Notes: generated from the sequence alone by a model not told the origin. Positions 31,583-35,300 are shown, numbered from the stretch's first letter. The stretch: 64,000 nucleotides of DNA from Betaproteobacteria bacterium (GCA_009779265.1 WREP01000005.1:13478-77477); one strand, 5' to 3'. A program made the numbers and translations.

Positions 31583-32935
31583 ATGGACCTCCAGGGCAAA
31601 CGGGCGGTCGTGGTCGGGCTTGGCGAGTCCGGGCTGGCCATGGCCAAGTGGCTGCATCGCCAGGGCGCTGGCGTGCGCGTCGTCGATTCGCGCGCCACGC
31701 CGCCCAATGCCGAGGCCCTGTTCCAGGCGGCGCCGGATGCCGAACTGGCGGCCGGGCCGTTCGCCGCCGCCGCCTTCGCCGATGCCGACCTGGTGGCCCT
31801 GTCGCCGGGCGTCGCCAAGGCCACGCCGGTCATCGCCGAACTGGCCGTGCCGGTGATTTCGGAAATCGAATTATTCGCCGCCGCGACGCGCGCCCTGGCC
31901 CCGGCGAGCAAAATCCTCGCCATCACGGGCAGCAATGGCAAGAGCACGACCACGGCGCTGGCCGCGCATCTGCTCAACGGCGCCGGCATTCCCGCCGTCG
32001 CTTGCGGCAATCTTTCGCCGTCGGCGCTCGATGCGCTGATGGCGGCGCTCGATGCCGACGCCCTGCCGGCGGCCTGGGTGGTCGAACTGTCCAGTTTTCA
32101 ACTGGAAACGACGCATTGCCTGAATGCCGCCGCCGCCACCGTGCTCAATGTCACGGAAGACCATCTCGACCGCTACGACGGCAGCCTGGCCGACTACGCC
32201 GCCGCCAAGGCGCGCGTTTTCCAGGGCCAGGGCGCGATGATTTTGAATCGCGACGACGACTGGTCGATGGCCAATGGCCGCTGCGGGCGGCGCATCGTCA
32301 CCTTCGGCCTGAACCCGCCGCCGCGCGCCGCCGATTACGGCCTCAGCGACGGCGCCATCGCCCGCGGCCAGGAAATTCTCGTCGCCCTCGCCGATCTGCG
32401 TCTGGCCGGTCTGCACAACGCCGCCAATGTCATGGCCGCGCTGGCTTTGTGCGAAGCCTTTGGCACCGTGCCGGCGGATCTGCTCGCCCCGCTGAAAACT
32501 TTTCGCGGCCTGCCGCATCGCGTTGAGACGGTGGCCGAGATCGGCGGCGTGCTTTACGTCGACGATTCCAAGGGCACCAATGTTGGCGCCACGTTGGCCG
32601 CCATCGCCGGCATGGGCCGGCCGGTCGCCGTTATTCTCGGCGGCGACGGCAAGGGCCAGGATTTTGCGCCGCTCGCCCCGGCGCTGGCGCGGCATGGCCG
32701 CGCCGTGGCTTCGATTGGCCGCGACGCGCCGCGCATCGAAGCGGCCATCGCCGCTTGCGGCTTGCCGCTGCGCCGTTGCGCCGACATGACCGAAGCCGTG
32801 ACTTGGCTGGCCGGCCAGGCTATTGCCGGCGACTGCGTGCTGCTCTCGCCGGCCTGCGCCAGCCTCGATATGTATCGCGACTACGCTCAGCGCGCCGCGG
32901 CTTTCATCGCCGCCGTCGGGGAACTGCCATGCTGA
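31583..32935 (+). CDS. murD: UDP-MurNAc-L-Ala:D-Glu ligase
   Basis: ATG at 31583; [30 protein letters not shown] and DDSKGTN motifs. Confidence 0.96.
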
Positions 32936-34092
32936 TCGCGGCGCTCGACGCTCCCCGCCGGCAACTGGCCGAAATCGACCACGCCCTCCTGTGGAGCGCG
33001 CTGCTCTTGCTGTTCGCCGGTCTGGTGATGGTTTATTCGGCCTCGATCGCCATTGCCGAGGGCAATCGTTTCACCAACAATCAGCCGGCCTATTTTCTCG
33101 TGCGCCACGGCGTTTTTTTGTGCATCGCCCTGGTCGCCGCCGCTGCCGCTTTTCAGGTGCCGCTGACGCTGTGGCAGAAATGCGCGCCCTGGCTGTTCCT
33201 GGTCGGCGTCGTGCTGCTTGTCATCGTGCTGATTCCCGGCATCGGGCGCGACATCAATGGCGCCCGCCGCTGGCTGTCGCTCGGCTTCGCCAATTTCCAG
33301 CCGTCCGAATTGATGAAGCTGTTCGTCGTGCTCTACGCGGCCGACTACACGGTGCGCAAAATCAATGTCATGCACAAGCTGGGGCAGGCTTTTCTGCCGA
33401 TGTTCGGGGCCATGGCCGTGGTCGGCATGCTGCTGTTGAAGGAGCCGGATTTCGGCGCCCTCGTCGTCATCATCGTCGTCGCCATGGGCATCCTTTTCCT
33501 CGGCGGCCTCAAGGCGCGCCTATTCACCCTGCTGATCATCGGCCTGCTGGTCGCCTTCACGATCCTGATCATCGTCTCGCCCTACCGCCGTGACCGCATT
33601 TTCGGCTTCATGGACCCGTGGGCCGACGCCTACGGGCGCGGTTACCAGTTGTCGCATGCGCTGATCGCCTTTGGCCGTGGCGAATTATTCGGCGTCGGCC
33701 TCGGCGGCTCGGTCGAAAAGCTGTTCTACCTGCCGGAAGCGCATACCGATTTCCTGCTCGCGGTGATTGCCGAGGAGCTTGGCTTCGTCGGCGTGCTGAC
33801 GGTGATCCTGCTGTTCGCCGTGCTCGTCCAGCGCGCCTTCGCCATCGGCCGCCAGTGCGTGCAGCTCGACCGCCTCTATCCGGCGCTGGTGGCGATGGGC
33901 ATCGGCATCTGGCTGGGCGTCCAGTCCTTCGTCAACATGGGCGTCAACATGGGTCTCCTGCCGACCAAGGGACTGACCCTGCCGTTGATGAGCTTCGGCG
34001 GCTCCGGCCTCTTCGCCAACTGCGTGACCCTCGCCATTCTCCTCCGGGTGGATTGGGAAAACAGGCAGCTCATGCGCGGAGGAAAACTATGA
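32929..34092 (+). CDS. ftsW: SEDS peptidoglycan glycosyltransferase FtsW
   Basis: [23 protein letters not shown] and [15 protein letters not shown] motifs. Confidence 0.96.
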
Positions 34093-34199
34093 CTGCGTTG
34101 GCGCTGCCTGTTTCGTCGCAGGCTAACTTGCGCAGCAAGTTAAGGGCGCAGCCCGGCCGGAGACAAAATCGCCAATTGATGCGCGGAGGCAAATTATGA
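34057..34199 (+). repeat. Diverged 36-nt direct repeat of the ftsW 3' end flanking a palindrome
   Basis: 34057-34092 vs 34164-34199 are 27/36 identical; internal inverted repeat TAACTTGC-GCA-GCAAGTTA at 34124-34142. Confidence 0.85.
34089..34199 (+). CDS. Putative 36-aa peptide ending in a recoded copy of the FtsW C-terminus
   Basis: ATG overlaps the ftsW stop (ATGA) with GGAGG 6 nt upstream; translates [36 protein letters not shown]. Expression is unproven. Confidence 0.4.
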
Positions 34200-34241
34200 G
34201 GCCAATGCGCTTTGAGGCAGCTCCTTTCAAGGAGGCTCATC

Positions 34242-35300
34242 ATGTCTAAAACCATCCTGGTCATGGCTGGCGGCACCGGCGGGCACATCTTTCCGGCGCT
34301 GACTGTCGCCCACAAGATGCGCAATGCCGGGTGGCGGGTGGTCTGGCTGGGCAGTCCGGAGGGCATGGAGGCGCGGCTGGTGCCGCAGCACGGCTTCGAG
34401 ATGGCCTGGGTGCGCTTCGCGGCGCTGCGCGGCAAGGGGCTTTTGCGCAAACTGCTGCTGCCGCTCAATCTGCTGCGCGCTTTCTGGCAGGCTTTGCAGG
34501 CGCTGCGTCAGGCGCGGCCGGACGTGGTGCTCGGCATGGGCGGCTATATCTCCTTCCCTGGCGGCATGATGGCGGCTCTGACCGGCGTGCCGCTGGTGCT
34601 GCACGAGCAGAATGCCGTGGCCGGGCTGGCCAATCGCGTCCTGGCCGGCGTCGCCGACCGCATCGTCACCGGCTTTCCGGGAACCCTGGCCAAGGGCCGC
34701 TGCCTGGGTAATCCGGTGCGCGACGAGGTGGCCGCGCTGGCGCCGCCGGTCGAGCGTTTTACCAAGCGCGAGGGCGCCCTGCATCTGCTGGTCATCGGCG
34801 GCAGTCTCGGCGCGCAAGCCCTGAACGAGGCGGTGCCGCAAGCCATGGCGCAATTGCCGGCCAACGAGCGGCCGTGCATCGTGCATCAGGCCGGCGAGAA
34901 GATGATTGAGGCTCTGAAAGCCAATTACGCGGCGGCCGGCGTCGAGGCCGATTGCCTGCCCTTCATCGAGGACATGGCCAGCGCCTATGCCTGGGCTGAT
35001 CTGGTCATCTGCCGCGCTGGCGCGCTGACCATCGCCGAACTGGCGGCGGCGGGCGTGCCCGGCGTCCTGGTGCCCTTCCCGCACGCGGTGGATGACCACC
35101 AGACCGCCAATGCCCGTTATCTGGTCAGTATCGGCGGCGCTTTCCTGCTGCCGCAGGAGGAATTGAGCGCCGACAGCATCGCCCTGATCCGCAATTACAG
35201 CCGCCACCAATTGCTGGAAATGGCGGAGAAGGCGCGCAGTCTGGCGCGGCCCGAGGCCGCTTCCGAGTTGGCGGATATCTGCGCCGAGGCGGCGAAATGA
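34242..35300 (+). CDS. murG: Undecaprenyl-PP-MurNAc-pentapeptide GlcNAc transferase
   Basis: [25 protein letters not shown] and DDHQTANA motifs; AAGGAGG ribosome-binding site before ATG 34242. Confidence 0.96.

Follow-up and report, generated by a model that had tools for sequence, protein, structure and literature searches.

A small hairpin-rich repeat in the end of ftsW that probably brings the gene a replacement terminus

At the junction of ftsW and murG in a betaproteobacterial genome (GCA_009779265.1) the last codons of ftsW are encoded twice. The stretch analysed comprises 64,000 nucleotides (WREP01000005.1:13478-77477; referred to below as the window, with positions counted from its first letter and all features on the plus strand). 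The DNA from 34062 to 34168, with AAAA at either border, is one unit of a protein-less, hairpin-rich betaproteobacterial repeat family, the placement of which in essential genes is unusual in that it spares the gene. The unit is probably DNA that moves horizontally, supplies ftsW with a replacement end and arrived in the window carrying the end now in use; judged from comparison of sequences, the probability of this is roughly 60%. Throughout, the genus referred to is Azonexus/Dechloromonas, related genomes are labelled G000-G111 and insertion loci L011-L208.

The ftsW gene (32755-34092; PF01098, E=1e-102) is given here as the open reading frame (ORF) from its first possible start, the true start lying later, and its 3' end at 34057-34092 reads GAA AAC AGG CAG CTC ATG CGC GGA GGA AAA CTA TGA. 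The segment 34058-34092, the working end or X, begins with AAAA and contains 10 codons, the TGA, a GGAGG and the ATG of a short ORF that follows. It recurs as a displaced end at 34165-34199, which begins with AAAA and reads AAT CGC CAA TTG ATG CGC GGA GGC AAA TTA TGA. The two form a 35-nt direct repeat with a spacing of 107 nt and identity at 27/35 positions. Between AAC and TGA there are eight base changes distributed over six codons, all of them synonymous, so that the same 10-residue peptide is specified by both copies; the ninth difference (GAA/CAA) is the border base, i.e., the final C of the repeat core. When sets of 8 random substitutions were simulated, the peptide was kept in 0 of 200,000 sets. 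The match to PF01098 stops at residue 437 of the 445 in the ftsW product, and the duplicated tail is therefore outside the domain. The doubled tail, with eight of nine differences synonymous, had been pointed out in a sequence-only reading of the window, and it is borne out by the direct repeat, the codon comparison and the simulation. The same holds for two further features described there, a 36-codon ORF (34089-34199) that follows a GGAGG and opens within the ATGA at the ftsW stop, and a palindrome, TAACTTGC-GCA-GCAAGTTA, located at 34124-34142. Overlooked were the start of murG at 34242, so that the 36-codon ORF does not adjoin murG, a second ORF at 34196-34249, an 11-nt arm at 34103-34113 that is perfectly complementary to 34059-34069, and the membership of the central 58 nt in a repeat family.

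The insertion site of the unit is GAAAA, within Glu-Asn codons of ftsW, and the unit is made up of a replacement end for ftsW (its final 10 codons with the stop, a Shine-Dalgarno (SD) sequence and an ATG), a 10-nt spacer, a complementary arm and a 58-nt core ending in CAAAA. The 5' arm of a first hairpin, H0 (AAACAGGCAGC, 34059-34069), pairs at 11/11 positions with the complementary arm X' (GCTGCCTGTTT, 34103-34113), which is the reverse complement of the start of X and the final TTT of which constitutes the first 3 nt of the core; the spacer (CTGCGTTGGC, 34093-34102) lies in the loop. H0 is present in the minimum-energy folds of both RNA and DNA, and its pairing covaries over more than 30 junctions. 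The core (34111-34168) has the form TTTCG-GTC-GCA-GGC / P2 / AG / P3 / G-GCC-GGA-GAC-AAAA, a three-way junction that scores 82.6 bits (E=2e-23) against the covariance model R1 built for the family. Hairpin P2 is the palindrome at 34124-34142 and has a C-GNA-G triloop, and hairpin P3 (GGGC-GCA-GCCC, 34144-34154) follows from the structure prediction for the core. The unit as a whole folds better than shuffled sequences (z -3.5 as DNA, z -2.8 as RNA). An SD-sequestering hairpin ahead of murG in the window was no better than shuffles (z +0.75), a scan of the insert for promoters and terminators gave no signal, and among Rfam covariance models run over 33500-34800 at E<=10 none overlapped 34050-34250. 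The product of the 36-codon ORF matched no Pfam family and the 107 nt hold no other ORF. Nor does the unit resemble a classical miniature inverted-repeat transposable element, which has terminal inverted repeats, a short target duplication of constant length and a parent insertion sequence, as the duplicates in the family vary from 15 to 104 nt and extend to the gene end, and no parent element was seen.

Related genomes show the site without the unit. Among 24 genomes of the genus, drawn regardless of whether the element is present, 17 have an empty junction in which ftsW runs through TGGGARAAYCGNCARYTNATGCGNGGAGGNAARYTATGA (AAYCGNCARYTNATGCGNGGAGGNAARYTATGA) straight into murG (ATGAGCAAAACC), whereas six genomes and the present one have 107-125 extra bases after GGGAAAA. 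In the unit-free relatives the ftsW stop overlaps the murG start (ATGA), and removal of 34062-34168 in silico restores this common empty junction. Both copies in the window match natural, functional ftsW alleles of the genus, as judged by alignment. The working end, of the allele class AAC AGG CAR CTC, is identical at 30/33 positions to the native end of the insertion-free G008. The displaced end belongs to the commonest natural allele class in the genus and is identical at 32/33 positions to the working end of G111, at 31/33 to G092 and at 30/33 to the native end of the insertion-free G013. The former end is a second natural allele for these ten codons, and hence the differences are synonymous; this is what alleles that have each been under selection in a real gene look like, and selection on the orphan copy need not be invoked. 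A metagenome scan for contigs of the same species with an empty allele gave no match.

The repeat family extends far beyond this locus. Model R1 detected 68 of 101 genomes of the genus as positive, with 1-12 copies in each; the present genome has one copy and the window is otherwise without a match. The consensus, from 16 aligned copies of 58-64 nt, is TTTCG-GNC-GCA-GGC-TAAC[hairpin]GTTAAG[hairpin]G-GCC-GNA-GNC-AAAA. RNAalifold folded these into a three-way junction with compensatory changes in 7/19 pairs, the outer core pair being U-A in seven copies, G-C in seven and C-G in one. C-GNA-G loops are a signature of very stable single-stranded DNA mini-hairpins, and such triloops were found in the two inner hairpins of 84/148 and 64/148 distinct cores, respectively. 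When species genomes were scanned for the exact pattern, the core turned up in Thiobacillus, Gallionella, Sideroxydans, Methylophilaceae, Sulfuritalea, Accumulibacter, Cupriavidus, Paraburkholderia, Hylemonella, Pigmentiphaga and others. Plasmid and phage sequences gave no BLAST match to the unit and the family therefore looks chromosomal. Gene-end-carrying mini-repeats were not found described in keyword searches of the literature, and the family is apparently undescribed. Two ftsW-murG junctions from other families of the order deserve mention. In G030 (L035) a short-core variant is present three times in tandem (96-nt unit) with a single 93-codon ORF running across it. In G039 (L034) three tandem units of ~122 nt are without the AGGCTAA core and each repeats GGAGGTGCCAGCATGAGCCACCCGGCGAG and a CCCCGC-GCAA-GCGGGG hairpin; these may belong to another repeat family that behaves alike at this junction.

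The anatomy seen in the window, GAAAA, X, spacer, X', a core ending in CAAAA and a second copy of X, is repeated at livH/livM, serS, acs, metK and the 5' ends of a thiolase gene and a HAD gene. The targets are conserved genes, and the core nearly always has a working copy of the gene end on one side and a displaced one on the other. Across loci X' is complementary to the first 8-18 nt of X, and the duplicates (15-104 nt) reach from AAAA approximately to the gene stop, or to the gene start if the element faces the opposite way. Arrays of units in tandem are frequent. Of ~120 loci sampled across the class, ~25 were at ftsW-murG, 9 behind acs and ~7 behind metK. Working and displaced ends could be compared at 33 loci with a clear frame, where 96 codons differed synonymously and 29 non-synonymously, and 16 of the 33 loci had only synonymous differences; synonymous recoding is a rule of the family and not an oddity of the ftsW locus. 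A subfamily with the core end ACAA has GACAA as its left border and a compensating TTG at the 5' end of the core. Transfer RNA genes are entered as well, at GAAAA or CAAAA of the anticodon loop in tRNA-Ser(UGA), Ser(CGA), Leu(CAA) and Phe(GAA) (L109, L099, L171, L188, L176). Here the left partial tRNA ends in GACAA (GCAAC in tRNA-Phe) and a short hairpin, and 3' of the core follow AAAA, 10-12 nt of 3' flank and a second promoter and 5' half joined to the intact 3' half, so that ARAGORN still detects one whole tRNA at each of these loci. At 8/8 different protein-gene targets GAAAA is in the phase GAA-AAN; 53% (46/86) is expected from codon usage in the window, so the phase bias largely reflects codon usage and 8/8 is only mildly unusual. 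At five loci (L208, L204, L097, L157, L163) the copies are 96-100% identical over at least 50 nt, yet the 6-10 nt right after the core AAAA are wholly different in the displaced copy; the replaced bases are of equal length and often pyrimidine-rich.

The unit may bring the gene end with it, or the end may be duplicated where the core lands. Three kinds of observation favour the former. First, the unit and the working end are linked. Every unit of subtype A seen (P2 CTTGCGCAGCAAG, P3 GGGCGCAGCCC) is found with the AACAGGCAR allele and with a matched X' (GYTGCCTG against CAGGCARC), and the working end in the window is of this class, while subtype B pairs AATCGCCAATTGATGCG with CGCATCAATTGGCGA. 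From AAAA to CAAA the unit is 95-100% identical among G070, G073, G093, G098 and G091, as against 81-96% (mean 88%) for the adjoining 48 nt upstream and 82-94% for the distal flanks of the same five genomes. As the adjoining 48 nt are no more alike than the distal flanks, the unit has sharp borders and no co-transferred flank. Second, the insert states do not follow the phylogeny of the locus. On a tree of the flanks (600+600 nt) they are as scattered as shuffled labels, and subtype A demands five changes for five rows, forced by well-supported branches. Supported pairs on this tree include G011 with A and G007 with B, G086 with A and G017/G014 with none, and G000 with A and G022 with none. 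Third, individual junctions resemble what an imported end would leave behind. In G098 and G091 an A unit lies upstream of another unit and the working end is of the A class, and what is left of a B-class working end and its X' arm (AAAATC...TTGGCGATTT) lies between the cores. In G092, compared with the native end of the nearest insertion-free neighbour, the displaced end is 2 nt off and the working end 8 nt off. The displaced end of G011 and the working end of the sister genome G007 agree at 35/35 positions. That the unit brings the end has moderate support, mainly from the tandems of A and B units, G092, the pair G011/G007 and the sharp borders. Of the explanations offered by the sequence-only reading, two are largely right if combined into an element within the 3' end of the gene that carries a replacement terminus and rebuilds the SD/ATGA junction, while the notion of a scar has to be given up as the insert is an intact member of a widespread family.

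A number of observations weigh against an imported end. All sampled flanks are only 82-89% identical to those of the present genome, and phylogeny can therefore not fix the allele that was resident here. The nearest-neighbour test gave the opposite result in most B-type genomes, the displaced ends of which are decayed in the first five codons; with flanks diverged by 10-20% and such decayed ends this test of the native end is underpowered. At several young loci the two copies differ in the 6-10 nt by the core and are otherwise 96-100% identical, which resembles duplication in place. The window alone contains 217 GAAAA sites per 64 kb, and no cluster of transposase-like ORFs was found beside the cores at ~120 loci. 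In the window X' matches the displaced end at only 5/11 positions, and pairing thus fails to explain the choice of site; targeting by pairing between X' and the site was ruled out here and for G092. Finally, no ftsW-type unit was seen outside ftsW, and homology-dependent spread therefore fits better than free transposition.

An alternative explanation is that the core inserted at GAAAA with a long and variable duplication of the target in place, and that one of the initially identical copies was later replaced through recombination with other ftsW alleles of the genus. The young loci with copies 96-100% identical, the tandem arrays, the range of duplicate lengths (15-104 nt) and the resemblance of the tRNA loci to local duplications are in its favour, as is the co-variation of the R2 parts of both copies within genomes (G010, G055: GGGCGACCGTGA / GGGCGGCCATGA). 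On the other hand it demands recombination in short patches, with crossovers inside 35 nt, and it leaves unexplained the strict linkage of AACAGGCAR, a matched X' and the subtype-A core over unrelated flanks as well as the tandems of A and B units, in which the working end switches class upon arrival of an A unit. As a full account of the locus it is considered unlikely. Our own reading is that both processes take place, units originating locally at the end of a gene and afterwards moving into that gene in further species.

Within the operon, the gap that the unit opens between ftsW and murG is bridged by short ORFs, termed relay ORFs here. Relay ORF 1 (34089-34199, 36 codons) starts with an ATG that overlaps the TGA of ftsW and stops at the old ftsW stop. 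Relay ORF 2 (34196-34249, 17 codons) starts at the old murG ATG within ATGA, and its TAA overlaps the present murG start (ATGTCTAA); the same ending, CATGTCTAA, is found in G088 and G080. At all 34 occupied ftsW-murG junctions an ORF starts in the ATGA or GTGA of the ftsW stop and the frame remains open to a stop that overlaps murG, although the inserts comprise one to three units and are 107, 119, 122, 125, 136, 182, 196, 260, or 278 nt long. An early stop in the first relay ORF was seen only in the window, where the second ORF continues. The core is open in one frame only, as the other two meet TAA in GGCTAAC or GTTAAG. That frame and overlaps persist over some nine length classes is an argument for selection on the translational coupling of murG to ftsW, and the relay ORFs are presumably translated. 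The murG gene itself (34242-35300; PF03033 and PF04101) is preceded in the window by 42 extra nt (34200-34241) that are unique to this genome among the junctions fetched and that contain a new SD sequence (GGAGG, 34231-34235). Behind it murG starts with ATG TCT AAA ACC rather than the genus-typical ATG AGC AAA ACC, the old murG start ATGAG persisting at 34196, where it opens relay ORF 2. The ATGTCTAAAACC murG start is also found in G088, G080 and G091, directly after the core and ~45 nt. A further gene-end replacement, without a core and at the CAAAA of murG, may account for the 42 nt.

It is conceivable that the unit, whatever its origin, is kept mainly as a cis-regulatory RNA or DNA structure that tunes the ftsW:murG ratio or the stability or processing of the mRNA. 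The structure is conserved and covarying and folds better than expected (z -2.8 and -3.5, as given above), ~20% of the class-wide copies are at ftsW-murG, and many B-type junctions have covarying hairpins between anti-SD and SD sequences (CCTCC/GGAGG, CCCCC/GGGGG). Against this, 17/24 genomes of the genus do without the unit, the same core is found at unrelated gene ends and in tRNA genes, and there is neither an Rfam match nor a terminator or promoter signal. As the main reason for the presence of the unit such a role is improbable, while it is compatible with an imported gene end. As a separate observation, at four subtype-B junctions (L011, L015, L049, L058) the start of the displaced end is an anti-SD sequence that pairs with the SD of murG, with the covariation CCTCC/GGAGG, CCCCC/GGGGG and CCTCCTCC/GAGGTGG; such pairing would make initiation at murG depend on the relay ribosome.

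The sequence-only reading had also considered that the 36-residue product of relay ORF 1 mimics the cytoplasmic tail of FtsW and modulates division. The ORF is open in 34/34 junctions and subtype-A relays mostly end in the same 10-residue peptide. However, the tail varies non-synonymously in subtypes B and C and freely so in the commoner subtype, the relay 'FtsW tail' of subtype B being NILLS, NPALM, NGQSM, NVALM, etc., and only RGGKL is kept, which overlaps the SD and the ATGA. The peptide has no Pfam family and the architecture is a general one, found at unrelated genes and also at tRNA genes, where a peptide plays no part. Judged from these variants, the relay peptide is not conserved beyond what the DNA structure and the SD demand, and a function as a mimic is rejected as very improbable on account of the variability of the tail. 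A neutral, decaying tandem duplication of the junction without any element, for which the direct repeat itself might speak, is practically out of the question given the simulation above, the synonymous excess throughout the family and the membership of the intervening core in a repeat family (E=2e-23). Absence of conservation and of further copies, which the sequence-only reading had named as what would indicate such decay, is clearly not what was found.

For a unit that imports the gene end the following sequence of events can be envisaged. The unit would enter ftsW at GAAAA, FtsW would then be completed by the unit-borne tail, and the former end would be displaced by 107 nt downstream. Ribosomes finishing ftsW would restart on relay ORF 1 at 34089, stop at the old ATGA, restart on relay ORF 2 at 34196 and end on the TAA that overlaps the murG ATG at 34242. 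Movement may proceed via single-stranded DNA or by site-specific recombination at AAAA, presumably with an enzyme acting in trans. Two models are considered. One is a single-strand transposition of the IS200/IS605 type beside a short target. In the other, the core-CAAAA end recombines site-specifically with a GAAAA site, which would also account for the capture of the stretch from GAAAA to the core, for tandem arrays and for precise loss. It is tempting to speculate that the family represents a new class of trans-mobilised, protein-less gene-end replacement cassettes. These would consist of a structured core of ~60 nt that recombines at (G/C)AAAA, probably in single-stranded or circular form, and captures the stretch from GAAAA to the core, be it the last or first codons of a gene or half of a tRNA. 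They would spread between species into the same gene without harm, leaving the native end orphaned and, in operons, relay ORFs as a bridge. The chance that this general proposal holds in full is somewhat below even.

If it does hold, essential and conserved genes throughout the class (ftsW, murG, metK, serS, acs and tRNA genes) are routinely entered by a tiny element that brings a spare gene end, which would be a new way of inserting into essential DNA. Alleles would be replaced at gene termini in the process, and annotation would contain artefacts in the form of orphan gene ends, spurious mini-ORFs and split tRNAs. The relay ORFs, with 34/34 occupied junctions and inserts of 107-278 nt, are a natural experiment on selection for translational coupling in the dcw cluster. 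An enzyme acting in trans at GAAAA beside a three-way DNA junction could have an activity new to site-specific recombination.

Several known systems share features with the unit. REP, BIME and REPIN sequences are small GC-rich palindromes, often behind genes and some inside them, with GTAG- or CGTC-like tags and a transposase in trans, or an unknown one for the CGTC class (Di Nocera et al., 2013, PMC3733652). Size class and tags bear comparison, with CGTC on the 5' side of the core (34114-34117; CCGTAGCC in most relatives) and G(N)AG on the 3' side, yet the core is a 58-nt three-way junction and not a single palindrome. REPs are moreover extragenic sequences of 20-40 nt with hundreds of copies, for which recoded gene-end duplicates or relay ORFs are not reported, whereas the present family has 1-12 copies per genome, one of them here, inside gene ends. 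The nearest published small repeat of betaproteobacteria is BRE, a chromosomal repeat of ~90 bp that forms tandem arrays, has some copies overlapping ORF ends and is transcribed in Bordetella (Hot et al., 2011, PMC3110155). It resembles the present family in being a small repeat of the same bacterial class, in its tandem arrays and in the overlap with ORF ends, but no duplication of gene ends is described for it. That the two are the same family was rejected, as GGCTAA and GTTAAG do not occur in the published BRE sequences (0 occurrences) and their alignment to the core is no better than shuffles. Rickettsia palindromic elements (RPE) are small palindromes tolerated in coding genes with the reading frame staying open. 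They are translated within the host protein, whereas the present element lies beyond the end of the host protein and is crossed by an ORF of its own, the relay ORF.

Two more systems can be compared. IS200/IS605 elements and their gene-less derivatives, the palindrome-associated transposable elements (PATEs), have hairpin-rich ends, a site beside a target of 4-5 nt, an element 3' end that resembles the target and no short fixed target duplication. The unit has the same arrangement, with GAAAA (GACAA in the subfamily) at the left border and CAAAA at the end of the core, and it has C-GNA-G loops, which are characteristic of stable hairpins in single-stranded DNA. Elements of this type have conserved subterminal hairpins at both ends that TnpA recognises; here P2 and P3 on the right are conserved and the left hairpin X:X' differs from gene to gene. 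Host gene ends are not carried by IS200/IS605 elements and PATEs, and the gene-specific left hairpin and the low copy number also set the unit apart. Prophage e14 and phage 21 in icd of E. coli reportedly carry a replacement gene end (Hill and colleagues in 1989 are said to have described this). As with these and with tRNA islands, the gene is completed by codons of the element that differ mostly synonymously (8/8 here; 96:29 in the family), the native end is orphaned at the far side and excision would restore the gene. Integrative elements of the e14/icd type, with a replacement end and an orphan end, encode an integrase (PMC6379469), are kilobases long and use one fixed att site. The unit, in contrast, is ~107 nt long and has no enzyme ORF, only the 36-codon relay ORF without a Pfam match, and its family is found in many genes, in each with the matching gene end.

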